Shown: in pieces, positions 4,165-24,745 of the stretch | Numbering within the stretch: position 1 is the stretch's first letter | Layout of the letters: each line of letters opens with the position of its first letter | Assembly: GCA_044356215.1 (NCBI GenBank) | Contig: JBIKWQ010000051.1 | Location: 1 to 25,950 of the forward strand | DNA length: 25,950 bases | Origin: Bdellovibrionota bacterium | GTDB taxonomy: Bacteria; Bdellovibrionota_C; UBA2361; OMII01 | Reading direction: 5' to 3' | Position numbers and translations under genes: made by a program | Notes under the pieces: model-generated | The model's input: the letters and a program-made list of their open reading frames with translations, nothing else | Databases searched by the model: none | What the model was told of the DNA's origin: nothing

Positions 4165-6303
4165 ATGTCTCAGCCTAAGCGTAAACGCTCCAGAAGGGTG
4201 ATTAAACCTGATCACAGATCTTTTGAGGTTATCTCAGGGTCATCTAACGAGCATCTCTTTGTAAACAGAGAACTTAGTTGGCTTCAGTTCAACTCACGTG
4301 TGCTCGCTCAGGCGGCTGACCCCTTTATGCCCTTACTTGAAAGGGTCCGATTTCTGGGGATCTTCGACTCTAATCTAGATGAATTCTTCATGAAACGTGT
4401 CGGTGGCCTTAAACGACAGGTGCTCGCCGGGGTCGCGAGTGTAAGCGCTGATGGACTAAGCGCTAAGCAGCAACTGGAATCTATTCGATATGCACTGGAG
4501 CCGCTCCTAGTCGAGCAACAGCGGATATTTTTAGAAGAGATCCTACCAGGTCTTAGGCGGGAGAAGATCGAGTTAATAGAGTGGCACAACCTTAATGATG
4601 AGGAGCGGGCCTTTGCCCGACACTTCTACGAGTCTCAGGTGTTTCCTCTTCTAACGCCTCTATCGGTTGATTCAGGGCATCCCTTCCCTTTCATCTCAAA
4701 CCTCTCTCTCTCCCTTGGGTTCTCTCTGCAACATCCTGATTACGAGGATCCCCTATTCGCTCGTGTAAAGGTCGATTCGCATCTGCCGCAGTGGATACGG
4801 ATCCCCTCTCGGAGCGAGGATAGCACTATCAGATTCCTGAGCATGGGAGGTCTGATTATGAGTCAAGCCGAAACGCTTTTTCCAGGGATGAAGATACTGG
4901 GATGTATGCCATTTCGGGTCACACGTAACATCGACCTGCATATCGATGATGAGGATGCCGAAGACCTAATGGAGGCGATTGAGGAGGGACTAAGAGCCAG
5001 GCGCGCCGGAAGAGTCGTTAGGCTTGAGCACGGGCCTAATCCTGAGCCGTGGATATTACAATTTATAATTGATGAACTAGACCTTGAAGCAGACGCGGTT
5101 TTTGAGTCGCGTGGTCTATTAGATTATTCCGGGCTCTCTCCACTTATTGAGCTTGATATCCCCCGACTGAAATTTCCGCATTGGTCGCCATCCGTTCCGA
5201 TAAGTATCCCTGAAGATGTAAATATATTTCAGGCGATCCGATCACACGACATATTGGTGCATCATCCCTACGAAAGCTTTACAGCGAGCGTTGAACGTTT
5301 TTTGCGCGATGCCGCTCACGATCCAAAGGTAGTCGCCATCAAGATGACCATCTACCGTGTCGGACAGGTAACTCCTCTTATGCCATACTTGATGCGCGCC
5401 GCGGAGGCCGGCAAAGAGGTTGTTTGCCTGGTTGAACTCAAGGCTCGCTTTGACGAGAAGCACAACATCTATTGGGCGCAAGAGCTGGAGAAAGCCGGCG
5501 TTCATGTCGTATATGGTATCCCCGGATTAAAGACTCACGCAAAGACGATACTTGTTGTTCGAAATGAGCCTGAGGGATTAAAGGCTTACGCTCATTGTGG
5601 AACAGGTAACTATCACACGAGAACATCTAATCTCTACACCGATTTTGGTTTGTTTACCTCGAGACCTGAACTGACACGGGAATTCATGGATTTCTTTAAT
5701 TATCTTAGTGGTCGATCTTTAAAGAACGACTACAAGAAACTATTGGTCGCACCTCTAACGATGGAAGGTAAGTTAATCGAATTGATCGAGAGAGAGATAG
5801 ACCATCATAGAAATGGATGGCCTGGAAGGATCATTCTCAAGATGAACGCGCTAGAGGACCGGCATTTAATCGAGAAGCTATACGAAGCCTCAAAAGCCGG
5901 GGTGTCTGTTGATCTAATTGTTCGAGGGGCATGTTGTCTCCGTCCTGGAGTCAGTGGACTGAGTGATAATATCAGAGTCATTTCAATAATCGGACGATTA
6001 CTCGAGCACTCACGAGCTTTTTATTTCGGTAATGGTCAAACGAATCCCCTAGACGGAATTTTCTATATCTCTAGCGCTGATTGGATGGGCCGCAATATGC
6101 ATAGGAGAGTTGAGGTAGCGATACCGATCGAGGAGCTATCTCTTAAAGATAAGATCTGGGCCGTCCTATCGGTTATGCTTGATGATCATCGGCTAGCCTG
6201 GGAGATGCAGAACGATGGATTTTATATTCGTCGAAACTTAGTACCTGGCAAAAGCAACCTTGGCACTCATGACGCCTTGATGGGAAACAAGTCCCCTGAC
6301 TAG
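4165..6303 (+). CDS. ppk1: Polyphosphate kinase 1
   Basis: NRELSWLQFNSRVL, NLDEFFMKRV, HPFPFISN, HHPYESF, ELKARFDE, KTHAK, GTGNY, LEHSR, SADWM.RN. Confidence 0.97.
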   Translation: MSQPKRKRSRRVIKPDHRSFEVISGSSNEHLFVNRELSWLQFNSRVLAQAADPFMPLLERVRFLGIFDSNLDEFFMKRVGGLKRQVLAGVASVSADGLSAKQQLESIRYALEPLLVEQQRIFLEEILPGLRREKIELIEWHNLNDEERAFARHFYESQVFPLLTPLSVDSGHPFPFISNLSLSLGFSLQHPDYEDPLFARVKVDSHLPQWIRIPSRSEDSTIRFLSMGGLIMSQAETLFPGMKILGCMPFRVTRNIDLHIDDEDAEDLMEAIEEGLRARRAGRVVRLEHGPNPEPWILQFIIDELDLEADAVFESRGLLDYSGLSPLIELDIPRLKFPHWSPSVPISIPEDVNIFQAIRSHDILVHHPYESFTASVERFLRDAAHDPKVVAIKMTIYRVGQVTPLMPYLMRAAEAGKEVVCLVELKARFDEKHNIYWAQELEKAGVHVVYGIPGLKTHAKTILVVRNEPEGLKAYAHCGTGNYHTRTSNLYTDFGLFTSRPELTREFMDFFNYLSGRSLKNDYKKLLVAPLTMEGKLIELIEREIDHHRNGWPGRIILKMNALEDRHLIEKLYEASKAGVSVDLIVRGACCLRPGVSGLSDNIRVISIIGRLLEHSRAFYFGNGQTNPLDGIFYISSADWMGRNMHRRVEVAIPIEELSLKDKIWAVLSVMLDDHRLAWEMQNDGFYIRRNLVPGKSNLGTHDALMGNKSPD

Positions 6304-6359
6304 AGAGGGAAGCCCCCTGTACAAGAAGGTCTGTTTACTGTAATCAAATCTAAACAATC

Positions 6360-7889
6360 ATGCTCAAATTTGCCGCTATTGATATAGGCTCAAACGCTAT
6401 TAGACTTGTCGTCGCCGAGGTTTCTCAGGCGGGTCGAATTAAAGTGCTTTCAAAACAAAGATCCGCGATCCGACTAGGAGCCGATGTTTTCTCTCGTGGT
6501 CGCATATCTAAGAAGCTAATGATGGAGTGCGCTACGTCCATTAAGAGTTTTAAGGCAGTTTGCGATCGGCACCGTGTCTCTCAGATCCGCGCGGTGGCAA
6601 CAAGCGCACTTCGCGAAGCTCGAAATAGTGACGAATTTAAAAGGGTGATTAAGGCTCGCACCGGCGTATCAATCGACGTGATTGCAGGAATTGAGGAGGC
6701 TCAGTTAATCAACCTAGCCATAGCTAGAACAGTTGATATCTCCGATTCACTCGCTGTAACGATCGATATGGGTGGGGGTAGTACCGAGGTTAATCTGGTC
6801 CAAAATGGGGCGGTGATAATGTCTGAAACGCATCCCATCGGCGCCGTAAGACTACTCCATCTTCTCCGGGCTGAGAAATCCACAGCAACACAATTCGCCC
6901 GAATGGTTAGAGATTATACCAGAAGCCTTCAGGGCCAACTGCGGAGCCATCTAGGGAAGCGTAAGGTTGATATATGCGTCGGCACAGGCGGTAATTTCGA
7001 GGCGCTGAGCGATCTTCGCGTTACGCTACTTAAGCTACCCAGAGGAAATCGTCTATCTTTAGTCGAGCTACGCCGAATTATAAAAACTCTTAGATCGGTC
7101 CCGGTGTCTGAAAGAATCAGTAAACTTGGACTTCGCCCCGATCGAGCCGATGTAATAGCGCCAGCAGCGGAGGTATTAGCCGAGATTATGATCTCGGCTA
7201 ATGTAAAAGAGATCCTGATTCCGCGAGTGGGATTGCGAGAGGGGGTCCTTTATCACATGGTAGCGCGGATACGCCCTGTTGCTGATCGAGAAAAGCGCCA
7301 ACAGTGCTACTCATTCGCTCAAGAACTTATAAGGATATATCAGAGTGATAGACGCCACTGCGAGTCTGTTAAAAACCACGCGTTATACCTATTTGATCGG
7401 CTAAAAAGGATTCACCGCTTGGATTCGGAGGCGCGCCTCTTAATAGAATTATCCGCCTTACTCCACGACATAGGGCGATTCGTTAACACTGAGGACCATC
7501 ACAAGCACTCGATGTACCTCATTCGTGCGGCTTCTTTTATCGGATTGGATCGAGAAAAACAGGATATCATCGCGTGCATAGCGCGATATCATCGTGGGGC
7601 TCTGCCAAAGAAGAATCATGAGGTTTACCGAGATCTTTCACCAGGTAATCAACGTAAAGTTCGTCTGCTCGCCGCCCTTTTGCGAATTGCCGATGCCGCA
7701 GATCGAGGGAAAGGGCGCGCGAGTAAGATTTCGATCCAAATAAAGAAACGCAGCCCCTACGCGCTTCTGCTACATGGTAGAGGAGATCTTTCTCTAGAGC
7801 GTTGGTCGATCGACAAAAAATCAGATCTCTTTTCAAAGGAGTACCACCGCAAGCTAATCGTCGGTGTGAGGGATGGGATTGGGCGATGA
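6360..7889 (+). CDS. ppx: Ppx/GppA exopolyphosphatase with C-terminal HD domain
   Basis: AIDIGSNAIRL, ATSALREA.N, G.EEA, DMGGGSTE, GLREG, LLHDIG, HHKHS; directly downstream of ppk1. Confidence 0.93.
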   Translation: MLKFAAIDIGSNAIRLVVAEVSQAGRIKVLSKQRSAIRLGADVFSRGRISKKLMMECATSIKSFKAVCDRHRVSQIRAVATSALREARNSDEFKRVIKARTGVSIDVIAGIEEAQLINLAIARTVDISDSLAVTIDMGGGSTEVNLVQNGAVIMSETHPIGAVRLLHLLRAEKSTATQFARMVRDYTRSLQGQLRSHLGKRKVDICVGTGGNFEALSDLRVTLLKLPRGNRLSLVELRRIIKTLRSVPVSERISKLGLRPDRADVIAPAAEVLAEIMISANVKEILIPRVGLREGVLYHMVARIRPVADREKRQQCYSFAQELIRIYQSDRRHCESVKNHALYLFDRLKRIHRLDSEARLLIELSALLHDIGRFVNTEDHHKHSMYLIRAASFIGLDREKQDIIACIARYHRGALPKKNHEVYRDLSPGNQRKVRLLAALLRIADAADRGKGRASKISIQIKKRSPYALLLHGRGDLSLERWSIDKKSDLFSKEYHRKLIVGVRDGIGR

Positions 7890-10783: not shown

Positions 10784-11083
10784 ATGGATCTTACAAACCT
10801 CTTAGTTCAACTTGTCGCTGGCGCGGTTGGCGGAAATGTCGCTGGTTCAAAGATGAAGAGCTCAGACCTTGGAACTCTCGGCAACTCACTCGCTGGAATC
10901 CTTGGTGGTGGCCTAGGTGGACAGATACTCTCTAGCCTAGGCGCTTCTGGCCTCGCTTCAAGCGCTGGAACAGGAATGAGCATAGAATCAATCGTCTCTG
11001 ACCTAGCTGGTGGTGGAGTTGGTGGAGCGGTTTTAATCGCTGTTATCGGCGCGATTAAGAAGGCTATGGCCGCTAAGGCTTAA
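10784..11083 (+). CDS. Small Gly-rich hydrophobic (membrane) hypothetical protein
   Basis: AGGAG RBS upstream; glycine-zipper-like segments GAVGGNVAG, GILGGGLGG, GGGVGGAV. Confidence 0.8.
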   Translation: MDLTNLLVQLVAGAVGGNVAGSKMKSSDLGTLGNSLAGILGGGLGGQILSSLGASGLASSAGTGMSIESIVSDLAGGGVGGAVLIAVIGAIKKAMAAKA

Positions 11084-11090
11084 GTGCCGA

Positions 11091-11777
11091 ATGTCAGTTT
11101 TTTTAATCCATCAAGAAGCCGCCTACACAGTGTTGCTCGCTGACTCTCTTGGTCAGAAGCCACATCTGGGTGGCGGCGCCACTTATCAAGTTACAGCCCC
11201 CAAACTTGTCAGAGTGGCCCCTGGGATCTACGCGGCCCACGCTGGGACACTGCAACCAGCGATAGATATGCTTAGTGAATTAAGCGCGGTTCTCGATCTC
11301 TCGCCTGACTGGGATTCGATGACAGCCAAGATGCGCGCGATCGGACACAACGTGCGCGATCGCTACCGCGAGATATTTAAGACAGATTCTTTTGATACAC
11401 GTGTCGCGCTCGTTATCACCGGAGCGAGAAGGCATCCAAACGATATCTCAAGTGATACCTCAGCATCATTACTAATCTGGGAATTGGCCCGAGATTTTGA
11501 ACCTCTGTACGTTGCTAGAGATCTCCATTTCGCCGGAAGTATTCCGATGACCGAGCTTGCAACCAGTTTTATGGCGCTACCGTTAGTCGCGGGAATGCTG
11601 AAACAGGGGCCACTCGCCGCCGCGCACGCGCTCATCGCCACTCACGCGGCGCTTGCTAAGTTAAGCTCAACGATCTCACCAGACGCCAACGTAGTAGTAA
11701 TAGGTGACGACGACGAGCACACAGTTTTACACGGCACACTGCTTGAGCTTGGTCAGGCGGAGTTGATTAAGGGGTAA
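11091..11777 (+). CDS. Putative proteasome beta-subunit/HslV-like Ntn hydrolase with N-terminal Ser
   Basis: After Met removal: Ser1, A-D17-S, K37...G51 (same 14-residue spacing as K33...G47 of beta subunits), later FAGS and ISPDANVVVI. Confidence 0.55.
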   Translation: MSVFLIHQEAAYTVLLADSLGQKPHLGGGATYQVTAPKLVRVAPGIYAAHAGTLQPAIDMLSELSAVLDLSPDWDSMTAKMRAIGHNVRDRYREIFKTDSFDTRVALVITGARRHPNDISSDTSASLLIWELARDFEPLYVARDLHFAGSIPMTELATSFMALPLVAGMLKQGPLAAAHALIATHAALAKLSSTISPDANVVVIGDDDEHTVLHGTLLELGQAELIKG

Positions 11778-12997
11778 CCACTCCCCCCCTCTTTGCTCTC
11801 CCCTACCCCAACCGCCACTGACACAGTCATATCACTTAAAACATTTGTCACCGAGCGGAGCCGCGCGACGATCCAATCCACTGTGAGTAACAGCGGCAAA
11901 ACATCAAGTGGCAATCCAAGAGCGGTTAGCACCAACGATAACGAAACAACTCCAGCCTCCGGCACCCCCGCCACACCAACTGACGCGATAAGAGCTATCA
12001 ACGCGGCGAATACCTGCTCTCCCAACGAAAGATCTACACCTAATGCCTGCGCCACAAATAGCGCGGCCATCGCTTCATATAGAAGTATTCCATCATTGTT
12101 TAGATTAGTACCGATACAGGTCGCTAATCGTGACGCTGATTTAGGCACTCCTAATTGATCAAGAGCGTGTAAAGTTACTGGAACTGTCGCCAAACTAGAG
12201 TTCGTCCCGAATGCGTAAGTCACCGGTTTAGCCGCCGCCAAGAAGAAACGCTTTAACGATATGCCACCAACTCGTTTAATCCACCACGGATAAACAAGAG
12301 AGATCTGAAGCGCTAGACCGAGAATCGCCGCAGCGAGATATTTTAGTAATCCTTTAAATGGCGCAAATCCAGAAACTCCCACTGTCTTAGCGATCACACA
12401 GAATATAGCCACCGGTACCAACGCGACTAACCAGAGAAGTGTCTGATTGATAACCACGCTGAAAACTCGCGAGATCCTCGCAGCGTCACTAAGGGATACC
12501 TCTGCGCTTGATGAGGCGCAGTAAACTCTTAATGCCGCTCCGATTAGTAACGCTAGCAACGCCACACCGATCACATTGTTCTCAACAAAGGGCGCGATAA
12601 TACTCTCTGGAACCAAGTTAGCTAAGAAATTTTGCAGCGAGAAATTCTTTGATAACGGAGCGACCTCGCTGTTAGCTCTGACCTGACCTAAAACAAATCC
12701 ATCTCCTGGACGCAATACATTTGAAACAGCAAGGCCCAGCGCCAAGGCGCAGAGCGCATTTATCGCGACAACTCCTAGCCAACGAGTAGCCGTTTTAATC
12801 GATAGCGTAGTAGTTAAAAGAGCTTCAATTATACTTATAAAAACAAGCGGAACAGCGATCGCCTTGATCACCTGAATATACAGCGCGCCAAAAACCCCAA
12901 GCGGTTCCGCGGCTGGCCCAATTAGGACACCAAACAACGCGCCTAGAACCGTTGCTAAGATGATGTACTTGGTGATTGAGCTAACGTGTGCTGACAT
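11753..12997 (-). CDS. Dicarboxylate/amino acid:cation symporter (DAACS/SDF, GltP/DctA-like)
   Basis: VPLVF.SI, AFGTNSSLATVP, GTNLNNDG, GVAGVP, D...R.RSVTNVLSD. Confidence 0.92.
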   Translation of the reverse strand: MSAHVSSITKYIILATVLGALFGVLIGPAAEPLGVFGALYIQVIKAIAVPLVFISIIEALLTTTLSIKTATRWLGVVAINALCALALGLAVSNVLRPGDGFVLGQVRANSEVAPLSKNFSLQNFLANLVPESIIAPFVENNVIGVALLALLIGAALRVYCASSSAEVSLSDAARISRVFSVVINQTLLWLVALVPVAIFCVIAKTVGVSGFAPFKGLLKYLAAAILGLALQISLVYPWWIKRVGGISLKRFFLAAAKPVTYAFGTNSSLATVPVTLHALDQLGVPKSASRLATCIGTNLNNDGILLYEAMAALFVAQALGVDLSLGEQVFAALIALIASVGVAGVPEAGVVSLSLVLTALGLPLDVLPLLLTVDWIVARLRSVTNVLSDMTVSVAVGVGESKEGGSGYPLINSA

Positions 12998-13821
12998 ATC
13001 TTCGTCTCGGGCAATATCAATTTCAAAACATCTCCCGTTACCCCAGCTAGTAATCGTGAATCCAATTTAGCTGCGTCCTTTACGATACTCTCTCTCTGTC
13101 TATCTATCTCACCGCGATCAGATTCAGGCCTATCACCATCATCAAGGTCATCAAAGGCTTGAAAGCACTCCCCTACCCTGGATCCCCACCCGATAAAATC
13201 TCCCAAGACCGCCTCGCGGATCCCAGCGCATATGGCTCCGCACCCTACCGACGCCCCAAAGAGCGCGCCGGTCTTTAACTCTATCATCTCATCTCGCTTG
13301 GCAGCCGAGGTGTTATTTTTAAGATCAATATCGAGCTGCTGCCCTAAGCAGAGATCCCACCAAGCCATAGAAAGCGTCCTGGCCACCCGCGCCTGGTTAT
13401 CGCTTGATAACTCGCTATCGGTTGTTACTAACATAAGCGCTGCACCCACTAGGGCGTCACCGGTTAAGATAGCCGTTGCCTCGCTAAACGCACGGTGGCA
13501 CGACGGACGTCCTCGGCGCTCGTCATCGTTATCAAGTGCTGGCAGATCATCGTGTACCAATGAAGCAGCGTGAAGGAGCTCAAGAGCGACAGCCGGACTT
13601 AGGGCTGTCTTTGTTATACTCTCGGAATCTTTTGAAAGGTCGTGAGCCACACTAAGAGCTAATAAAGCTCGGAGCCGCTTCCCTCCTGACCCAGAAACAT
13701 AATCACACGCCTCGTGAAGGACCGACCTGCCCTGATTTCGACCGCTCCAATCGTAAACAGATGCCAATCTGGAATTAACTTCAGCAATCCAACGATCTAT
13801 CAACACGCTGTTTGTTAGCAT
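12955..13821 (-). CDS. ispA: Polyprenyl (farnesyl/geranylgeranyl) diphosphate synthase
   Basis: GGKRLR, ELLHAASLVHDDLPALDNDDERRGRPSCH, AILTGDAL, GQQLD, KTGALF, FQAFDD. Confidence 0.88.
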   Translation of the reverse strand: MLTNSVLIDRWIAEVNSRLASVYDWSGRNQGRSVLHEACDYVSGSGGKRLRALLALSVAHDLSKDSESITKTALSPAVALELLHAASLVHDDLPALDNDDERRGRPSCHRAFSEATAILTGDALVGAALMLVTTDSELSSDNQARVARTLSMAWWDLCLGQQLDIDLKNNTSAAKRDEMIELKTGALFGASVGCGAICAGIREAVLGDFIGWGSRVGECFQAFDDLDDGDRPESDRGEIDRQRESIVKDAAKLDSRLLAGVTGDVLKLILPETKICQHTLAQSPSTSS

Positions 13822-15170
13822 AGAACACCAGTCCCCTCTCTCCTTCGCCAGATCGGACGCTCAGGCACCGACAGCATCTCTCGAATCCTTCCTACCATGT
13901 ACATCGAGCCTGTTATATAAGGGCTTGGCCCAGCCTCGCCAGACATTAAGTCGCGCAGGCACCCTTCGTAGTCATCCCCGTAAACCTCAATACGCAGATC
14001 CTCCTTATTTCTTGTCCCGGAACTCGATACCGCTAACTCCTGCTTTAGGAGCTCTAGTGGCAAGGCTCGCTCCGATTCAGGTCTAAGAAGTCGCCAAGTC
14101 TTTACATAAGGTCTTAACCTTCTAACCATCTCCTGCCAACTCTTTGTGTCTAGCACTCCAAAGGTCAGATCAATCTCCTTGGCTCCTGATGTATCGAGAA
14201 ATGAGATAAAAGAATCGATACCTGCAGGGTTATGGGCGCAATCTAGTACGAGATTTAAGCTACTTACGCTTATTTTCTCGAGCCTTCCGGGCCAGAAGAC
14301 CCCTTCTATGCCTGCTTTTACCGTCTCCTTGTTCATTCCAAGTGCCAATCCGATAGAGGCAGCTACAGATAGATTGTGAGCCTGATGAGTACCTAACAAG
14401 CCAGGCTTAAAATTAAATCCTATGTTCTTAGCCCCAAGGAATTCCTTACCCCAGTACTCGATACATTTACCCCCTGCTCGGTCATCGACAATCCTGGCAT
14501 CAAAATCACGTCCGAATTTAAAATGAGGTACATCGGAGGCCAGCTTCGACACAACAGCATCAGCTTCCTTGCCTAAAATCCCCGTAATTAGCGGAGATCC
14601 ACTCTTAATTATACCTGCTTTCTCAGCGGCTATCTTACCTAGTGTGTCACCAAGTATAGCTTGATGGTCAAAAGATATCGTTACAATCGCTGTGGCGGCG
14701 GGTCGTGCAATGACATTAGAAGCGTCAAGCCTCCCCCCTAAACCCACCTCTATTACAGACCACTCGACTCCATATTCGAATAAACCTAGGAATGCGATCG
14801 CTGTTATGGCTTCATGGAAGCTAAGCTCCACTAACTCCCGGGCCGCAGCCTGCTTAACTGCATAGGCAAACTCGCCTAAAAACTCATCAGAGCATGAAAA
14901 ACCATCAATAACGATCCTCTCATTTATCTTCTGAAGATGCGGGGATATGTTTAATCCTACCTTATACCCGCCTGAGCCAAGTATACTGGCAACCGCAGCA
15001 GAAACAGACCCCTTTCCATTCGTCCCGGCAATATGAACCGCTGGAACCCTATCCTGCGGATTACCAAGCCTACGCAGCACTGAGATAAGCTCACTAAGCG
15101 AGAAACCTCCGCGCCCATTCCAGGGCCGCAACCCATTAAGATACGCCAGCCCTGATTGAACTCTATTCAC
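13815..15170 (-). CDS. folC: Folylpolyglutamate synthase/dihydrofolate synthase
   Basis: HIAGTNGKGS, SPHL...NERI, EVGLGGRLDASNV, DH..ILGDTL.KIA.EKAGIIK, WPGRLE, LDCAHNP, TGSMYMVG. GTG at 15170 (MNRVQSGLAYL) is preferred; the ORF track extends to 15230 and ATG 15203 is possible. Confidence 0.93.
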   Translation of the reverse strand: MNRVQSGLAYLNGLRPWNGRGGFSLSELISVLRRLGNPQDRVPAVHIAGTNGKGSVSAAVASILGSGGYKVGLNISPHLQKINERIVIDGFSCSDEFLGEFAYAVKQAAARELVELSFHEAITAIAFLGLFEYGVEWSVIEVGLGGRLDASNVIARPAATAIVTISFDHQAILGDTLGKIAAEKAGIIKSGSPLITGILGKEADAVVSKLASDVPHFKFGRDFDARIVDDRAGGKCIEYWGKEFLGAKNIGFNFKPGLLGTHQAHNLSVAASIGLALGMNKETVKAGIEGVFWPGRLEKISVSSLNLVLDCAHNPAGIDSFISFLDTSGAKEIDLTFGVLDTKSWQEMVRRLRPYVKTWRLLRPESERALPLELLKQELAVSSSGTRNKEDLRIEVYGDDYEGCLRDLMSGEAGPSPYITGSMYMVGRIREMLSVPERPIWRRREGTGVLC

Positions 15171-15187
15171 TGTCCCACCGTGGGACA
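15171..15187. promoter_or_regulatory. Candidate parS-like centromere palindrome, copy 1
   Basis: TGTCCCAC-C-GTGGGACA, perfect 8-bp arms, just downstream of parB; function inferred from position. Confidence 0.65.
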
Positions 15188-15222
15188 CCACATAGGCGCC
15201 CATTTTTTTGCATTTTTCTTCC

Positions 15223-15239
15223 TGTCCCACCGTGGGACA
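15223..15239. promoter_or_regulatory. Candidate parS-like centromere palindrome, copy 2
   Basis: Identical TGTCCCACCGTGGGACA (extends to 19 bp, 15222-15240), 52 bp from copy 1 and about 21 bp past the parB stop. Confidence 0.65.
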
Positions 15240-15260
15240 GCCAAATTAGGATAGCGCCCA

Positions 15261-16130
15261 CTACTCGGCTACAAGCTTTCTGAAGACGATTTGAAGGTCA
15301 GAGTCGCTGTAGAAGTCGATTGCTAACCGACCAGAATCGGCACCAGAGCCAGACCTAGATAGCTTAACCTTCATACCAAGAGCTCTCTGGATCTCATCTG
15401 CTATTCGCATATCCTCAGCGCTCATCGTTCTTACTGGGGCTTCATCTGTGTTTGCAGTATCCCTAGGTGCCTTAAGATTCCTCTCTAGCTCGTTTCGTGT
15501 AAGAACGTCGAGATCCTTAAGGTACGTAGCCCTTATCGATGGGTCATCAATCTTCGCCAACAAAAGAACCTTTGACTCCGCTGCTCCTTCCTTTAAAGCG
15601 TTTAGAAGGTCATCTGGGAGCTGCAATATCTCTAAGCTCCTTTGAACTGCGCTTTTCGAGATGCTCAGCTTCTCTGCGATATCTCGAATGCTGAGATTAT
15701 GCGCGTCTCTAAGAGCCCCTATAGCTTGAGCTCGCTCTAGAGGGGTTAGATCATCTCTCTGCAAGTTCTCTACAAGCTGCAGAGCTAAGGTACGATCATC
15801 AGCCTCATCTGCCTGGCTAACTATAGCTGGAATCGATGACAATCCCGCCAAATTAGACGCCCTGTATCTACGCTCACCTGAAATAACTGTGAAACGCCCC
15901 GGAAGCTTCGCCGCTCGCACCAGAATCGGGCTTATTACGCCGTAAAGCTTTATGGAATCTGCCAGCTCCTGCAACTTCTCCTGATCAAAGGTGCGTCTTG
16001 GTTGGTTTGGATCAGGTTCAATCGCAGATAGCGGGATCTCGCGGTAGGGGACACCTCCTTTGGCGCGCTCCTGAAGAGCTGGACCCTGCATTAACGGATT
16101 GTTTGCAAACGAAAAGCCTTTCTTAGTCAT
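15261..16130 (-). CDS. parB: ParB/Spo0J family partition protein
   Basis: PNQPRRTF, LADSI..YGVISPILVR, GERRYRA (CTPase arginine patch), LVENLQRDDL, HTH, Spo0J-like C-terminal dimerisation domain. Confidence 0.95.
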   Translation of the reverse strand: MTKKGFSFANNPLMQGPALQERAKGGVPYREIPLSAIEPDPNQPRRTFDQEKLQELADSIKLYGVISPILVRAAKLPGRFTVISGERRYRASNLAGLSSIPAIVSQADEADDRTLALQLVENLQRDDLTPLERAQAIGALRDAHNLSIRDIAEKLSISKSAVQRSLEILQLPDDLLNALKEGAAESKVLLLAKIDDPSIRATYLKDLDVLTRNELERNLKAPRDTANTDEAPVRTMSAEDMRIADEIQRALGMKVKLSRSGSGADSGRLAIDFYSDSDLQIVFRKLVAE

Positions 16131-16956
16131 TTAATACCTCATTAGCGAGCGCTGTATAATCTTCAGATCCCGGAGACTTCGGCAGATACTCAAAGATAGT
16201 CTGCCCCTTTGCTGGTGCCTCTGCTAGGGCAACATTCTCTCGAATTACTGTATCGAAAACTAGGTCCCCGAAATAGGCCCGAATTGTATCGGCAACTGCA
16301 CGCGCTAGCCGCTTGCGACTATCGTGTAAGCAGATAAGAACTCCGCCGACTATCAGGTTCTGGTTGTATACGCTCCGAACTTGATCAATAGTATCAAGCA
16401 GTTGGCGTACTCCGTGAAGAGCTAGGTACTCGCTCTGAACCGGAACTATTACTTGGTCAACCGCAGCCAAGGCGTTTAAGGATAGGAGTCCGAGGGTAGG
16501 GGGGCAGTCGATCAATATAACGTCATACTGGTCTCTGACCTTATCTATAGCCCGTTTGAGGAGGAGCTCACGCCCTACGACACCTCCTAACTCTAGGTCA
16601 GCCGCACTGAGGAGCAAACTAGAGGGAACGACGTGCAGATTATCGGACCTTTTGATCGTAACATCCTGAATTCTCTTATTTCCCTTCAGCACATCGTAGA
16701 CCGTCCACTCTGGACCCTTCTGGGACTCATTTACCTCAGAGAGATCATCGGTCGCACCGAGGCCCAAGTGGGTTGTGAGGTTGCTCTGCGCATCGATATC
16801 TATAAGCAGAACCCGCTTTCCGCTCTCTGCTATTGCGGCCCCGAGATTCACTGTCGTAGTCGTCTTACCGACTCCACCTTTTTGATTAACTACGCTAATC
16901 GCTATGGCGCGCCTTGGGGGGTTATCCCGGTTACCGTTTACCTGTTCGCTTGTCAC
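16123..16956 (-). CDS. parA: ParA/Soj family ATPase
   Basis: NQKGGVGKTTT, LLIDIDAQSNLT, IDCPPTLG, PVQSEYLAL, IRENVALAEAP; overlaps the parB start. Confidence 0.95.
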   Translation of the reverse strand: MTSEQVNGNRDNPPRRAIAISVVNQKGGVGKTTTTVNLGAAIAESGKRVLLIDIDAQSNLTTHLGLGATDDLSEVNESQKGPEWTVYDVLKGNKRIQDVTIKRSDNLHVVPSSLLLSAADLELGGVVGRELLLKRAIDKVRDQYDVILIDCPPTLGLLSLNALAAVDQVIVPVQSEYLALHGVRQLLDTIDQVRSVYNQNLIVGGVLICLHDSRKRLARAVADTIRAYFGDLVFDTVIRENVALAEAPAKGQTIFEYLPKSPGSEDYTALANEVLND

Positions 16957-17475
16957 ACATCACCCGCACTAAAATACTCGTGATTCGAAATAAGGAATCT
17001 CGCAAAGATCGCCAATAAAATCTACCCTTAAGTCAGATCACGATAAGAAATACTTTATATTTGACCGATTTTTCTCCCACCTTCGAGTAAATTAACGTTT
17101 CGTGTATCGAGATAAGAAAACAGGGGTTCTAATAGGACACTTTTCGATCTCAAAACACGATACATATTTACCCAGAGACACGATATAGGGACGCTAGATC
17201 CCGATTCATCGTGTTTTGGACTAAGCGTTATCGTGCTTTGAAATTCACATTATCGTGAATTGCCTCATAGCGTATCGTGCATTCTGATAAGACTGATTCG
17301 TGATTGAGTCACAAAAGACTCGTGCATGGAAATAAATATTAACATCCAAATACCTGATTTAAATAGCTTTTCTTTCCGCTCAATAGATAACATGTAAGAC
17401 AAGAAAAGATTGTTTAACTAACTAAAAGTAAGCTAAGGTGTCGTTGATTTTTAAGGTCTATTTTTCTTTGTTTTT
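16957..17475. other. Putative iteron-type replication origin between divergent parA and rep genes
   Basis: Six TCGTG cores at 17209, 17231, 17253, 17275, 17298, 17320 (spacing 22,22,22,23,22); inverted CACGA cores at 17039, 17156, 17179; further TCGTG at 16978 and 17100; AT-rich tract about 17330-17475. Confidence 0.7.
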
Positions 17476-19071
17476 ATGCGAGACGAATCTTCAACCACGT
17501 CGCTGTATCAAGACCTGAGCCAATTCCAAGTTGATCAAGCCCCGGTTTGTTTCAATCCGAATTCGTCCAGTTCTACTACGTCGTTGAAGTTATCGCGAGA
17601 TGAGATGAATCTCGCTGAGTTTCCTTTAACTGTTCTCTCCAAGCGATCTGATCCGTCGGTTAAAACCTTAGAGTTCTCTGATCATGTTAAAGGAAAAAAT
17701 GGAGATCTGATTAATCGGAAGTGGATCATTACAGGAGCTGATAAATTTGGATTGCCAACTTCTTCAGATGATGAAGTTTTGCTGGGCCTGTTGAAGCTCA
17801 CCGCGGATGATGGACTTAGATCAAGAAAGATTCATTTCACTCGCTATGAGCTCTTGCGAATTCTTCGCTGGACAACAGAGGGACGGAGTTACACGCGTCT
17901 TCAGAACGCGCTGGATAGACTGAGCGGAGTTCGTATAAAGGCCTCAAACGCCTTTTATGATAATGAGAGCAAGCTTCACAGCACTCGCAATTTCGGAATA
18001 ATAGACGCTTACGAGATCAATGATGGGCGAGACACGAGACCTAGCTTCTTTACTTGGAGCGAGGTGCTCTTTAAGTCGTTTCAAGTTGGCTTTATTAAAA
18101 AACTCGATCTAGATTTTTATCTGGATCTAGAGAGCGCGGTATCGAAACGGCTGTACAGATATCTCGACAAGCACTTTTGGTATCGTTCGCGAATACAGGT
18201 GAATCTGTTCACTTTAGCTCATGAGAAGATTGGAGTGTCCCGCAACTACGTTTACGCTAGCTCTCTTAGACAGCAAATAGAGCCAGCCCTTGAAGAGTTG
18301 AGGAATCGAGGGATTTTAAGTGAATATGATTTTACCGGTAAGGGAAAATCAACTGATGTCATAATGGTCGCGGCGCACGCGCCGAAAAAGAGTGTGCCTT
18401 CTCAGGTAGTGGATGTTGATAGATCGGCAGCAGAGGATAAGCGGGAGGATCTATCAGCAGAGGCTTTAGCGGAGCGAGTGAGGAGGGCGTTAGTTGAGCG
18501 TGGGCTCGCGGATAAGCAGAGCCTAAAGCTAACGGCAGGGCAGGGGACCGCTACTTTAGAGAGGATGCTTTTGATAGTGACGCGCTTTGATGAACTGATT
18601 AACTCGCGGAGTTCCTTAGTCAGCAGGAGTCCGACAGGATTTTTATATCGAGCCGTTGAGAGGCCCTTTGAGTTTGTCCTGCCAGGTGAAAAGAAGCCGA
18701 AGCAGGGAGAGTTGAATTTAGAATCTGAGAATCGACAAGGTAATAAGAGTGGCCCAGCGCAAGCAGGGGTAGGAGCGACAGCCGCGGAGAAAAGTAGCCT
18801 AAACGACCCGTCCCTAAAGAGATCGATGAAATTAAACTTAGAGGTTCAGTATCTGACAGAGCGTAAGGAGACATTGGACCAGGTTTTAGCGCGTAGCTCA
18901 ATGAAGGAGAGGGAGCAGGTGCGCCAGGAAGTTGAAAAGGCACTGGCTAAATTGCGCGCTCATATCTCGCCGCAGCGTTTCTCAGAGGCAGTTCAACACG
19001 GAATGGAGCAGAGGTTGTTGGATTCGTATGGATTCCCAGAGTTCGATGTCTGGGCTCAGAAGAGAATGTAA
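17476..19071 (+). CDS. repA: Plasmid-type replication initiator protein A (RPA/RepA-like, winged helix)
   Basis: RDEMNLAEFPL, GLPT..D.EVLLGL, FTRYELLRIL.W...GRSY.RL..AL.RL, KRLYRYLDKHF match replication initiator protein A homologues as I recall them; context of parAB and phased repeats agrees. Confidence 0.8.
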   Translation: MRDESSTTSLYQDLSQFQVDQAPVCFNPNSSSSTTSLKLSRDEMNLAEFPLTVLSKRSDPSVKTLEFSDHVKGKNGDLINRKWIITGADKFGLPTSSDDEVLLGLLKLTADDGLRSRKIHFTRYELLRILRWTTEGRSYTRLQNALDRLSGVRIKASNAFYDNESKLHSTRNFGIIDAYEINDGRDTRPSFFTWSEVLFKSFQVGFIKKLDLDFYLDLESAVSKRLYRYLDKHFWYRSRIQVNLFTLAHEKIGVSRNYVYASSLRQQIEPALEELRNRGILSEYDFTGKGKSTDVIMVAAHAPKKSVPSQVVDVDRSAAEDKREDLSAEALAERVRRALVERGLADKQSLKLTAGQGTATLERMLLIVTRFDELINSRSSLVSRSPTGFLYRAVERPFEFVLPGEKKPKQGELNLESENRQGNKSGPAQAGVGATAAEKSSLNDPSLKRSMKLNLEVQYLTERKETLDQVLARSSMKEREQVRQEVEKALAKLRAHISPQRFSEAVQHGMEQRLLDSYGFPEFDVWAQKRM

Positions 19072-19453: not shown

Positions 19454-22400
19454 GTGAGGATGTGCTACTTACGCGATCAGAAAACTAGCGAGTACTTGTG
19501 TGGGATCTCTTCTCGCATAGGACGGAGCGCAAGCGCGCTTATGCTGGTCGTGTATCTAGTCGCTGCGCTGCTCTCTCTGGTTACCTTTAGCGCTTACGCC
19601 CAAGTCTCAGTTGTTGGCTCGTCAACATCAACAGATTCTACAACTGCTTCAGCACGAAAAACATTCTTCGATTCAGGTTCAAGTAACCACTGGGCATTCT
19701 GGTATACCGGCTCTCAGATCGATTACGCGTCGTCGTCTGACGCGATTACTTGGACCACTCGCGGAAATCTCGCTTACAACACGCCGAATTTCTCAGTAGC
19801 GTTTAAAGTTATCGCGGGTACTTCGTATGTCTTCCTAGTCAGTGAGGCTAACACCTATGACATCGTGATTAGGCGGGGAAGTATATCTGGGACTACGATC
19901 ACCTTCGATGCCGCCGTAACTGTTCTAGACGGCACCTCGGCGAGTGATAACTACATTCTGCCTCATGTGATGCTCGATAGTAACGATAAGGTCTGGACCG
20001 CCGCGTTTAAGGACCTAGGAGATGTAGGTGACAGATACCACGCGACGGCGCGCAGGACGACTAACGCAGGGTCATCAGCACTGACATTCGACGCGGCTAG
20101 TTCATTTGGTAAGCCAGCCGGAGAGATCGCGGCGGTCGCCCTCGCGCCGTTATCGTCAGGTAATATGTTGGCGACCGTATCAGGCGAGAGCGGGAGCAAT
20201 ATAATCGCATATCTGTACAACGGCACGTCGTGGTCTCTGGCGAATGGCGGAGGAGACATGGGCGGACTGCAGTTCGCGCAGTCGGGAGCCAATGAGGAGG
20301 TGAGGGCGCTACTGAGGGACTCTGGTACAAATATATATGCGGCGGGTAGCTTCACCTCGATAGGTGGCGCCATGGCGTCACGTGTAGCGCAGTTTAATGG
20401 AACATCGTGGAGGGGCTTAGGAGCTGGGGTTTCCGGAACCGCATACGCGTTAGCTCTGGACTCGACCGGGAATCTCTACGTTGGAGGAGATTTCACGACC
20501 GCCGCGAGCGTCACCGTAAACAATATAGCACGCTGGAACGGGGCTTCATGGACAAGTCTTGGTGGCGGGGTGAATGGTATTGTGTATGCTTTGGCGATCG
20601 ACTCAAGTGGGAAGGTATACGCTGGAGGTGCCTTCACTAGCGCTGCGGGAACGACGGTCAATTACATTGCCCAATGGAACGGCTCTTCTTGGTCCAGCCT
20701 CGGCACTGGCATGAATGCCCAGGTTAATTCACTCGCTGTTGACTCAACGAACAAGCTATACGTCGGAGGTTCATTTGGTACCGCATCTGGAACCACTGTC
20801 AACAACATCGCTCAATGGAACGGTAGTTCCTGGGCTGGTCTAAGCTCGGGAATGGACGGTGTAGTTAACGCACTGATAGTTGACTCAAGCGACCGACTTT
20901 ATGCAGGTGGAACATTTCTTACGGCAGGAGGCAGCTCCATAAATCGAATCGCTCAGTGGAACGGATCAACTTGGAGCGGTCTGGGAGCAGGTGCCGATTC
21001 CACAGTTCGAAGTTTAGCACTTGACTCAACCGGTAGAGTTTATGTTGGAGGTAACTTTACCAGTCCGGCGACTCGAATAGCCAGGTGGAACGGAACGTCC
21101 TGGTCCGGTTTTAGTACCGGTATTAATTCGTGGGTCTACGCGATTGCAGTTGATACATCCTCAAATGTTTACGCAGGAGGCGCCTTTTCCTCTGCGGCAG
21201 GAACCTTATTCGAAAATATTGCAAGATGGAACGGAACCTCGTGGTCTGCCGGAGTTACAAAGGGAATAAACGGTTTGATAAATGCTGCTGCCTTTGACTC
21301 TAGCAATAATCTCTATGTGGGGGGTGATTTCACTACAATTGGTGGAATTACCGCCAATCGAATCGCCAAATGGAACGGCACCTCATGGTCGGCTCTAGGC
21401 ACAGGGACGAGCAACAGCGTTAACGCGATCGTCTATGAACCAATTAGTGGGAATCTTTATGTAGGTGGTGGATTCGGCGCAGCCGGCGGCGTCACTGTAA
21501 ACCGCATAGCCCGGTGGAATGGCACTGCCTGGTCGGCGATGGGAACAGGAACCGGAGGATCGTCTAGTGGGCTCACGGATTTAGAGGTTGACTCACTTGG
21601 AAACCTCTACGCTGTAGGTGCCTTTACAACTATGGATGGCATAACGGCTAATCGTGTCGCGAAATGGAATGGTTCAGCGTGGTCCGCCTTGGGAACAGGC
21701 GCGAGTGATTACGTAAACGCCTGTGCTGTTGATTCCTCTGATAACTTCTACATAGTTGGGGCGTTCGCATCTGTGAATGGCGTTACAGCCAACCGAGTGG
21801 CCAAGTGGAACGGCAGTGCTTGGTCAGCGATGGGCACCCTTTCAAGTCCGAGGTCTATCACGATAGACTCAACCGATGCTGTATACGTTGGAAGTAATGC
21901 ATCAACCAATAGGGTTCAAAAATGGAATGGAAGTAGTTGGGCCAGTGTAGGTAGTTGGAGCACTGGCAGCACAGAAGCAGTCGACTGCATGGTCACTGAC
22001 AGTAATAACAATCTTTATGTAGTCGGCGATTTTACCAACGCGGGAACGATATCAGCTAGCTATATCGCTAAATGGAACGGCACCTCTTGGTCAACAGTTG
22101 GCTCGGGACTCACCTCTGCAGCGCTTGCTATCACGGTTGACTCGAGTGATAACTTATACGCCGGAGGAGGCGACCTCACACACTTTATTCCTCTCGGGGC
22201 CAACAACCAGAATCTAGGCACCGTCTCATCACTAGTCGCAGGGGCGAGTGGAGCGGCGCATCTGTTCTATATCGATAGCTCCTCAGATGTTAAGGTAAGG
22301 AGCTATTCCGGCTCTCCAGCCTCATGGGGTAGTGTGACAAATGTCCATACCGGAACGGTATCGTCGCTATCAGCGGCGTACAATTCATCTACCAGTAAAC

Positions 22401-24745
22401 TAATCACCTGGTTTATCGATGTAGCTGATGTGCTCTACCGAGACGCAAGCAGTCCATTTACAACTTGGTCAGCAACTACCTCAGTCAGCGCCGCGGGGGT
22501 GCCGAAATCAGTGTCGTCTGATGTTGAGGCTAACAGTTCAGGTTTGGTTCTCTCAACCTGGAACCGCGCTGGCAGCTCGGCTGGCGAAGTCGTGGCGTCG
22601 TTAGGAACTCCAGGGCCAACTAATACGCCGACTGTCACACCGACCAGTACGCCTACGTTTACCGCCACCATAACACCGACTATTACACCGACATTTACCG
22701 CCAGTAATACACCGACGATCACGCCGACTGATACTCCAACGAATACACCTACTGATTCGCCAACCGTTACACCTACTTTTACCGCGAGCAACACGCCAAC
22801 AGTGACACCTACGTTGACGCCAACTAATACGGCAACTAACACGCCGACATCAACTCCGACAAACACGGCGACCAACACGCCAACAGTGACGCCAACTAGC
22901 ACACCCACCAGAACTCCGACCAACACCCCGACTCAGACGCCAACACAAACTCCGACTAATACTCCGACAGTTACACCTACGGCGACGCCGACACCGGTTT
23001 CCTATCTTGGCGAAGACGGCGAGTACCATGCTCTTGGGCCAACAGCGACTGCAACCCCTACAAGAACTCCTACCAATACACCAACAATCACACCTACAGG
23101 CACACCCACAAATACGCCTACAAACACCCCATCGATCACACCGACTAGAACTCCTACCTCGACTCCTACTAATACCCCGACAAACACACCGACCAATACA
23201 CCGACTGATACCTCAACCAACACTCCAACAATCACCCCAACCAATACACCCACCAACACCCCAACAGCAACCCCAACATCAACCCCATCAGCCACCCCAA
23301 CCCGCGGCGGGTCGCAGAGTGTGACACTTACTAAGGACCCAACAGCGGCATTAACTGATGTTGACTTAGGCGCCGGCACAATGGTGATAAAATTCAGCAT
23401 CGCCTGGAATTATTCCTGGCGCAAAGCTACTGCGCCTAACAACTGGGATGCCATGTGGTTCTTTGTGAAGTTCCGTAAAAATCTAGGCCAGTGGCAGACG
23501 ATGACATTTACTGATACCGGCCACACAATTCCATCAGGAGCAGCAATCGATATCGGTTTGCGTGACCCAAACAGTAGTTACAACAGTACAACAAATAGAG
23601 GGGTAGGGGCGTTTATCTATAAAGACTCTGCAGGTTTTGGCACAAATACCTTTAACGATATTAAGCTTAAATGGCCGTATGCTCTGGACGGTGTTCAACA
23701 AGGCGACCGAATCGACTTGCAATTTAACGCTATTCATATGGTGTATGTCCCTACAGAGAGCTTCTATGCAGGGGATGATAACACTTCAAGTAGCTCGTTT
23801 AAGCAGTCTGGATCTAATAGCGCTGTGCAGATAACTGGTGAGGGCGAAACGACCGTGTATGTTGGAGCGACTGGATACACTGTGCCTGCTGGATTTCCTA
23901 AGGGCTACAAAGGATTCTATGTAATGCGTCACGAACTTGCTCAGGAGCAGTATCGAAATTTCTTTAACACGTTACCAACAACGGGAAGTGCTAGAGCAAA
24001 TAGAGATGTCACAGATAGCACAGGTAAAAACTCTGATAACTTAGTGAGCCGAAACAATATCAGTTGGGACTCAAGCAATCTCGCTAACGATATGAGTGTA
24101 CCTGATAGAGACTCGCCAAATTCTAGAACCTACTGCTCGGTGGCGATGAGTTACTTAAGTTGGGATGACTTAACAGCTTATCTTGATTGGGCGGGATTAA
24201 GACCGATGAGTGAGCTAGAGTATGAGAAAGCAGCGAGGGGTCCAACATCACCTGTTGCTGGAGAGTACGCATGGGGAAGCACCAATTATCAGAACGCCAG
24301 TGGTGTATCTAGTCCTGGAAGGATTAACGAGGTGCCTACCACAGTAGGGGATAATATAAATTTTGGTGGAGGTCTTGGTGGTCCAGTCAGGGTTGGATCA
24401 TTTGCGGCATTAAATTACGGAAGAGCTTCGAGAGAGAATGCTGGTGGTGGTTACTACGGGGCTTTAGAACTAAGCGGGAATGTCTATGAACGGGTTGTTA
24501 CTGTAGCTAACAGTGATGGCAGGAATTATACGGGTGTTCATGGAGATGGGGCGCTTGATTCAAATGGGAGGGCTAACGAGAGTAATTGGCCGTCACCAAC
24601 TAGTGCTTCTGGCTCTGGATTCCGTGGGGGAAGCTGGAATGTGGCTTCGTCGTATTGCCGGGTGTCTGACCGGTCGACCGCTGGGACGGCTGATACAAGT
24701 CGTGGGTCTGATTACGGAGGGCGAGGGGTGAGGACGGCGCCGTAG
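19454..24745 (+). CDS. Large secreted/surface protein: signal peptide, beta-propeller repeats, Thr-Pro linker, C-terminal FGE-sulfatase (SUMF1, CLec-fold) domain
   Basis: Signal ending SAYA-Q; 14 [WFY]NGxxW repeats of about 47 aa; TPT repeats; [48 protein letters not shown]...GGRGVR. Start uncertain (19454, 19460 or 19541). Confidence 0.85.
22606..23305 (+). repeat. Low-complexity Thr-Pro (TPTx)n coding repeat, a linker or stalk
   Basis: Degenerate 12-bp-period repeats encoding [12 protein letters not shown], interrupted by [15 protein letters not shown]. Confidence 0.9.

Follow-up and report, generated by a model that had tools for sequence, protein, structure and literature searches.

Positions 15171-19071 of contig JBIKWQ010000051.1, from the metagenome-assembled genome (MAG) of a Bdellovibrionota bacterium, carry a replication initiator gene, repA, set back to back with a parA-parB partition gene pair, and very probably represent the origin (ori2) and partition locus (ParABS2) of a large RepA-driven second chromosome or chromid, vertically inherited beside a DnaA/oriC chromosome. 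The window, i.e., the whole stretch of DNA analysed here, is this entire contig of 25,950 bp, designated C15 in a 3.24-Mb, 131-contig assembly that is 96% complete (G000). The locus is ancient, and it is neither a recent insertion nor the main origin; the assignment of contig C15 itself to a separate megabase replicon is deduced from relatives. The module comprises the following elements:

15171-15187: parS2 copy 1, a 17-bp palindrome TGTCCCACCGTGGGACA composed as TGTCCCAC-C-GTGGGACA, within the 5′ end of folC
15223-15239: parS2 copy 2, TGTCCCACCGTGGGACA, overlapping the folC start and the gap between parB and folC
15261-16130, minus strand: parB2, with PF02195 and PF17762, of chromosomal type with a GERR motif
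16123-16956, minus strand: parA2, PF13614 (1.2e-58), a Soj-type Walker ATPase without the N-terminal helix-turn-helix (HTH)
16957-17475: divergent spacer of 519 bp, the ori2 region
16978-17183: five scattered or inverted cores, TCGTG at 16978 and 17100 and CACGA at 17039, 17156 and 17179
17209-17341, plus strand: direct iteron array of six repeats starting at 17209, 17231, 17253, 17275, 17298 and 17320, with a period of 21-23 bp
17325-17475: AT-rich tract, 72.8% A+T versus 50.7% in the window, candidate unwinding element and repA promoter region
17476-19071, plus strand: repA, 531 residues, PF10134

The divergent arrangement of repA and parA-parB had been noticed in an earlier reading made without database searches (hereafter, the sequence-only reading), and the length of 519 bp that it gave to the spacer is exact. 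It had also called the first of these genes repA-like and proposed PF10134 (RPA) as the family to search. In the Pfam scan, RepA matches this family over residues 41-266 with 67.4 bits (cut-off 27; 1.8e-18), and with 70.4 bits in a six-frame search, so that it can be counted among the initiators; it also displays weak matches to TrfA and Rep3_N, and an NCBIfam scan returned no name for it. The AlphaFold model of the protein, based on an alignment of 52 sequences (the window protein, 50 of the 63 complete orthologues and a paralogue from contig C33, after removal of eight near-duplicates, four sequences of outlying length and one containing a stop codon), has a mean predicted local distance difference test score of 80 and contains two winged-helix domains (residues 64-299) followed by a helical C-terminal part (328-530). 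When the model was compared with solved structures by Foldseek, the best PDB match corresponded to domains 2-3 of RctB (E 1.5e-8, template modelling score 0.57 on the target), followed by RepE (8e-4). As modelled, RepA adopts the tandem winged-helix (WH1-WH2) fold of iteron-binding Reps, and the conserved phased repeats described below indirectly support that it would bind iterons and open the origin. The C-terminal 200 residues or so are conserved and helical, with no recognisable family or fold lead. Within this half (320-531), P386, G388, F389, L390, Y391, R392 and A393 are nearly invariant. A search of the ESM Atlas with residues 320-531 retrieved unnamed clusters only, with scores of at most 0.90.

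The spacer contains 11 TCGTG/CACGA cores, about 21 per kb compared with 2.1 per kb in the window, and represents the densest TCGTG cluster of the genome (10-11 per 400 bp versus a maximum of 7 elsewhere). Six of the cores form the direct array, which is the sole same-strand run of at least three cores spaced by 20-24 bp in 3.24 Mb; two inverted cores (17156 and 17179) lie directly upstream of it, and equivalents of the scattered-core positions are retained in the spacers of the closest relatives. A similar array, with gaps of 22 bp or multiples thereof, occupies the parA-repA spacer in 17 of 17 relatives of the genus, and 94 phased sites pooled together yield the consensus TCGTGAwttGAnatAA. 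Both the phased repeats and the AT-rich tract on which the sequence-only reading relied are therefore real: the repeats are unique in the genome, and only 0.002% of its 150-bp windows match the tract at 17325-17475 in A+T-richness. As a single strand, the tract folds less than its shuffled versions, and a promoter scan of the spacer found no more candidates than in shuffles. The locus does not resemble an origin of the DnaA/oriC type, given that dnaA and dnaN lie on C94 and TTATCCACA (the DnaA box) is absent from the spacer at one mismatch or fewer, in line with what had been seen earlier. A second RepA-binding cluster elsewhere in the genome, comparable to crtS, was also sought; the dense TCGTG spots on C94, C45, C42, C122 and C119 are unphased, and they were dropped as candidates.

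Regarding partition, the nearest solved structures of ParA2 are ParA/Soj (3e-53) and those of ParB2 are Spo0J, Noc and ParB, so the chromosomal appearance attributed to both proteins at first sight holds. ParB2 scores 157.6 bits against TIGR00180 (cut-off 58.45) and keeps the GERR motif, while ParA2 is 83-90% identical among genus relatives. The pair combines a Walker ParA and a GERR/HTH ParB, as in chromosomal ParABS systems, without the canonical parS near parB: the 16-bp site TGTTNCACGTGAAACA has no match in the window at three mismatches or fewer. In its place there are two copies of TGTCCCACCGTGGGACA, which at two mismatches or fewer has exactly two matches in the 3.24-Mb assembly, both beside parB. 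This palindrome was missed by a search for even-length palindromes (perfect and near-perfect, shared among loci), because its centre is odd, and it was seen on reading positions 15140-15320; the "novel parS" postulated by the sequence-only reading is hence a real element, present twice 3′ of parB and conserved in relatives. Among the 67 relatives' loci that include the ParB C-terminus plus at least 300 bp beyond it, 66 have one or more sites between -500 and +250 bp relative to the parB stop codon, with precisely two in 54 of them. Altogether, 134 sites were found in 50 kb beside parB versus 7 in 1,109 kb elsewhere, an enrichment of about 400-fold in a count that was not blind, as the two search consensuses were picked after viewing the sites. 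In distant members, C4/G14 is replaced by A4/T14 (12 sites with both changes versus 12 with one), that is, the two arms change together. On the sampled megabase contigs of relatives, parS2 occurs solely beside parB2, and five canonical sites lie beside parB1 in the one sampled stretch covering that gene (G037, contig C2).

The presence of dnaA and of another parAB elsewhere in the genome had been singled out at the outset as informative, and both are found. Contig C94 retains an intact dnaA-dnaN-recF-gyrB cluster. Another contig, C31, harbours a further parAB pair with five canonical parS sites around it; the products of this pair are 40% (ParA) and 30% (ParB) identical to those of the window. 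There, at C31:1165-3572, parA1-parB1 is followed by a bactofilin gene, and five identical TGTTCCACGTGGAACA sites fall within 1.3 kb. A third replication module was also observed, at C33:499-17658; besides a ParA and an RPA paralogue (36% identity to RepA), it encodes one helicase of XPB-like and one of SNF2 type, DUF4143 ATPases, a tyrosine integrase and two unassigned open reading frames (ORFs), and this element is probably a plasmid. RPA paralogues like that of C33 occur in several relatives.

In the studied genome, repA (C15) and dnaA (C94) lie on separate contigs of a fragmented assembly, and the same separation is seen in 11 of the 11 assemblies compared, of which only two, G056 and G037, are informative, owing to the fragmentation of the others. 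G056 belongs to the same class (record JAXLVP01) and is assembled in contigs of 3,256,849, 1,866,914 and 21,428 bp; dnaA, ParB1 and the sole 16S ribosomal RNA gene lie on the first (C1), and RepA and ParB2 on the second (C2). On C2, the GC skew is negative in all seven windows sampled from 98 to 587 kb, positive in all seven from 587 to 1,147 kb, makes the opposite turn at 1.42-1.57 Mb and is negative again from 1.57 Mb. The minimum of the cumulative skew, at 581-594 kb in a contiguous stretch of 567-607 kb, coincides with the RepA start at 587 kb. On C1, the skew is negative in nine of nine windows from 513 kb to 1.90 Mb, becomes positive at dnaA (2.067 Mb) and reverts somewhere within 342-513 kb, diametrically opposite dnaA. 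Taken together, these profiles define two complete origin/terminus pairs on two contigs. G037, a member of the same order with five contigs, shows a complete pair on C3 (708,979 bp), where the skew is negative in 18 of 18 windows between 37 and 686 kb, turns at 691-693 kb, at ParB2/RepA, and is positive at 1-20 kb; it also shows an origin-type turn around dnaA, within 520-750 kb of C2 (1,252,138 bp), both ends of which are positive. The sole dnaB gene (TIGR00665) is located on the RepA contig in both genomes, at 1.435 Mb of G056 C2 and at 286 kb of G037 C3. In the window itself, the skew minimum anticipated near 17.2 kb does appear, at about 17 kb, but it is confounded by gene orientation, and it is the relatives that provide turns at the locus.

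The skew of contig C1 of G037 (543,884 bp) is positive in nine of ten windows. With this contig and C5 added to C3, the RepA replicon of G037 may amount to approximately 1.37 Mb, versus 1.25 Mb for the DnaA one. The same 544-kb contig bears one of the two G037 16S genes (G037:C1:433165-434685). The uniform positive skew of C1 fits the replichore that the RepA replicon is missing; if C1 does belong there, the Rep-driven chromosome would carry a ribosomal RNA operon.

These observations bear on two ways of placing the locus on the conventional chromosome. According to the first, RepA/ParAB2 would lie on the same molecule as dnaA/oriC, as a fusion or co-integrate with two origins, whether or not the second one fires. 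The 131 contigs of the studied assembly leave room for such an arrangement, and a single dnaA-driven circle with dnaB and folC, that of G095, exists in the order; nevertheless, G095 lacks RepA and ParB2, and thus it is not in a dual-origin state. In G056 and G037, moreover, dnaA and RepA occupy separate megabase contigs, an origin-type turn being seen on each, and terminus-type turns are also present on both G056 contigs and on G037 C3. Adding that the iterons, parS2 and RepA are retained intact, with RepA in 73 of 73 high-quality genomes, we regard a dual-origin chromosome as improbable. The second possibility, in which the RepA locus would be the main and sole functional origin and DnaA would have been demoted to a regulator, finds some support in the slightly greater universality of RepA compared to dnaA (73 of 73 versus 72 of 73 high-quality genomes) and in G037, whose RepA replicon may be the larger one. 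Against it stand the intact dnaA-dnaN-recF-gyrB cluster and the skew of the sampled windows, whose sign changes precisely at dnaA in both G056 and G095 and inside the dnaA-holding interval of 520-750 kb in G037; these make it the least probable of the alternatives considered. Of the two options contemplated by the sequence-only reading, consequently, the origin of a chromid or secondary chromosome carrying core genes is upheld, but not that of a main chromosome with a domesticated Rep-driven origin, as the dnaA cluster is kept and lies on a separate contig.

The second-chromosome interpretation draws further weight from the distribution of the module. RepA orthologues are present in 40 of 41 relatives, covering all 17 sampled families of the order, and in 117 of the 124 genomes of the GTDB phylum that were examined, including all 73 of high quality; the corresponding figures for dnaA are 109 of 124 and 72 of 73. 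The identity of RepA is 62-74% within the genus, 52-63% within the order and 43-50% within the class, a drop with taxonomic distance that is expected under vertical descent. The relatives' loci analysed (80) come from MAGs labelled Bdellovibrionota, Oligoflexia, Deltaproteobacteria or Proteobacteria, largely from fresh water. In every locus that reaches far enough upstream, the order (ispA)-(folC)-parB-parA<>repA is maintained, down to 43% RepA identity; folC is gone from its place beside parB in the most distant ones. The synteny on which the sequence-only reading had made its inference depend is accordingly conserved, with this loss of folC from its position at the largest distances.

An ORF listing and a Pfam scan of the 16 window ORFs located the neighbours of the module as follows:

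4165-7889: ppk1 and ppx (Pfam scan)
11753-12997, minus strand: DAACS/SDF transporter (Pfam scan)
12955-13821, minus strand: ispA, housekeeping gene in conserved synteny with parB2
13815-15230, minus strand: folC, housekeeping gene in conserved synteny with parB2

As initially described, folC, ispA and the transporter gene follow parB on the same strand, with ppk1 and ppx nearby. The assembly yielded no further copy of folC, ppk1 or ppx, and ispA has only a 28%-identical paralogue. Integrase, relaxase, transfer and phage families are absent from the 16 ORFs scanned, just as had been stated beforehand, and neither att-like flanks nor an integrase were seen at the module. These data weigh on the idea that the locus is the remnant of an integrated plasmid, or a moderate accessory plasmid that happens to bear folC and ispA. 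The layout is indeed plasmid-like, the nearest deposited plasmid Reps are those of Planctomycete plasmids (30-39% identity), and a paralogous RPA+ParA element resides on C33 of the same genome. However, apart from the lack of integrase, relaxase and transfer genes, the GC content of the contig (49.3%) is like that of the rest of the assembly, ispA and mostly folC flank the module lineage-wide, and in relatives the locus sits on contigs of 100 kb to 1.87 Mb whose skew turns at it. Either of these plasmid explanations is therefore very unlikely. What had been proposed as grounds for abandoning the chromid inference was looked for, and the outcome favours the inference: RepA fits an initiator family, relatives carry the module at the same site in all loci that extend far enough, att-like flanks are lacking and the skew turns at the locus.

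Chromids are said to have been delimited by Harrison et al. in 2010 on the basis of a plasmid-type replication and partition system, core genes, a chromosome-like base composition and their nature as separate replicons. RepA, the iterons and ParAB2 constitute a replication and partition system of this type. Genes that are chromosomal elsewhere comprise folC, ppk1 and ppx in the window, dnaB on the RepA contigs of G056 and G037, and AsnS, AccD and FtsE on that of G056. When 137 ORFs were drawn at random from the 225 that reach 200 residues in a 400-kb sample of G056 C2, NCBIfam matches above cut-off included AsnS, AccD, FtsE, ThiL, DnaB, heme o synthase, class II fructose-bisphosphate aldolase, GalU, Pgm, TrmFO and SelA. 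Concerning base composition, the 49.3% GC of the contig falls within the range of nearly all contigs of the assembly, and in G056 the windows of C1 (55-58%) and C2 (54-58%) are similar.

Several observations weigh against assigning the locus to a second chromosome. The window spans a single 26-kb contig among the 131 of its MAG; the size, circularity and separateness of the replicon from the dnaA contig are not directly visible there, and the skew minimum of the window coincides with a switch of gene orientation. The skew of relatives comes from sampled 20-kb windows only, which cover 12-56% of each contig. The A+T-richness before repA is uneven among relatives, ranging from 43 to 70% in the final 150 bp before the called repA ORF starts. 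DnaA boxes are present at many iteron origins, and the spacer, in which none was found at one mismatch or fewer, departs from that. Finally, there are exceptions in the lineage. G095, of the same order and 82% complete, consists of a single 2.28-Mb contig with a lone skew origin at dnaA (865 kb) and a single terminus at about 1.9-2.0 Mb; its genes include dnaB, folC and one of ParB1 type, and RepA and ParB2 were not found in it. Either this genome is a derivative that has fused its replicons or become monopartite, or its bin lacks a smaller second replicon. In G031, a 1.9-Mb genome, the RepA locus (G031:C17:350198-351447) is interrupted by 11 stops (2 TGA, 2 TAG and 7 TAA), while the RepA of a congener is intact, which may reflect decay of the initiator in a reduced genome. 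From G095 and G031 it follows that the module is apparently losable, or that the replicon is unbinned there. Two small genomes of family f22 gave no RepA match at E 1e-20, and they keep a ParB2-like gene that is 48-49% identical.

The best-known system of comparable organization is chromosome 2 of Vibrio cholerae, with RctB and ParAB2/parS2. Both share a plasmid-type iteron initiator, a megabase replicon with essential genes alongside a DnaA chromosome, their own ParAB with a non-canonical parS, and conservation throughout the taxon, in addition to the fold match between the RepA model and RctB domains 2-3. Unlike in Vibrio, the initiator here is a Pfam RPA protein (PF10134), the Pfam scan (RPA, TrfA and Rep3_N) having given no RctB family, and its likeness to RctB lies in the fold alone. 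The iterons of Vibrio ori2 are 11/12-mers and 39-mers, whereas here TCGTG cores recur with a 22-bp period in a spacer without DnaA box; no phased site comparable to crtS was found in the rest of the genome, and the conservation extends across a GTDB phylum (124 species examined) instead of one family. A second parallel is provided by chromosome II and the megaplasmids of Deinococcus and by pTT27 of Thermus, which are secondary replicons with RPA-family initiators and their own ParAB. Among 14 control genomes, PF10134 matched in Thermus and Deinococcus only, and 74 of the 190 matching PLSDB records are Deinococcus/Thermus plasmids. The closest deposited plasmid Reps belong to Planctomycete plasmids, followed by Rubrobacter, Deinococcus and Thermus. 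Identity is only around 22% in the two Deinococcus plasmid matches listed, the two cases differ in how deeply the locus is conserved and in the size of the replicon, and the parS2 described here is a one-base-expanded variant of the canonical parS.

As for the plasmid initiators RepE (of F), Pi and TrfA, RepA resembles them in the two-winged-helix fold (RepE) and in its weak TrfA/Rep3_N matches, and its origin resembles theirs in having direct repeats spaced by some two helical turns beside an AT-rich tract, as well as inverted copies, which could serve autoregulation. It differs from them by the extra helical C-terminal half of about 200 residues and by the chromosome-sized replicon. With chromosomal ParABS systems the locus shares, besides the Soj- and Spo0J/ParB/Noc-like proteins and the GERR motif, parS arms that are similar. 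In contrast to the 16-bp chromosomal site, parS2 has 17 bp, an unpaired central C/G and C/G for T/A at arm position 4, the canonical site being used instead by the ParAB of C31. The locus is functionally of the same kind as Vibrio chromosome 2 or the Deinococcus/Thermus RPA replicons, and it is distinct in its initiator family (with respect to Vibrio), its parS variant and its depth of conservation. Literature searches for a multipartite genome in this lineage found nothing, and the portion seen of a 2026 survey of large extrachromosomal replicons, which excludes MAGs (PMC13342612), holds nothing on this lineage.

Outside the module, the window contains other features. An AAA_14 + DUF4143 ATPase gene occupies positions 1150-2508, and the same family is also present on C33. 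Two neighbouring plus-strand ORFs of 99 and 228 residues at 10784-11777 lack a Pfam family. Beyond repA, positions 19454-24745 encode a protein of 1763 residues with Rax2/DUF5122 beta-propeller repeats and a C-terminal FGE-sulfatase domain, C-terminal parts of which, 95-100% identical, are found at the ends of contigs C22, C100, C93, C118 and C10. Such near-identical copies at contig ends indicate that this protein family is repeated and probably breaks the assembly. Rfam and transfer RNA scans of the window found nothing.

With regard to mechanism, homology and conservation suggest a model in which RepA, through its two winged helices, would bind the 22-bp-phased TCGTG iterons of the parA-repA spacer, and would then open the neighbouring AT-rich tract. 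The host helicase would be loaded by RepA, giving rise to bidirectional replication. The two 17-bp parS2 palindromes that immediately follow parB would be the loading sites of ParB2, which, together with the Soj-type ParA2, would segregate the RepA-driven replicon. Chromosome 1, in turn, would use ParAB1 with the canonical 16-bp parS. Given that each system would have its own site, it is proposed that the two do not cross-react.

Second chromosomes of plasmid descent have been described in Vibrionaceae, Burkholderia, rhizobia, Deinococcus and a few further groups, in most cases at the depth of a genus or family. Here, the second chromosome appears to be fixed across a whole deep, uncultured lineage, it depends on another initiator family than that of Vibrio, and essential replication genes lie on the Rep-driven replicon. 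A bolder proposal, to which we give roughly even chances, is that the entire lineage (124 species in 36 families) has an obligate two-chromosome genome that is as old as its root. The RepA chromosome would then be co-primary, bearing the only gene for the replicative helicase, and in at least one member it would be as large as or larger than the DnaA one (about 1.37 versus 1.25 Mb) and may carry a ribosomal RNA operon. If true, no known multipartite genome of a bacterium would be rooted more deeply or divided more evenly. Completeness and binning estimates for these MAGs should allow for two replicons, and growth rates estimated from coverage under the assumption of one origin per genome would be erroneous for them. 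The pair formed by the canonical parS and parS2, separated by one symmetric base change and one central insertion, also offers a natural test of how ParB paralogues avoid cross-talk.

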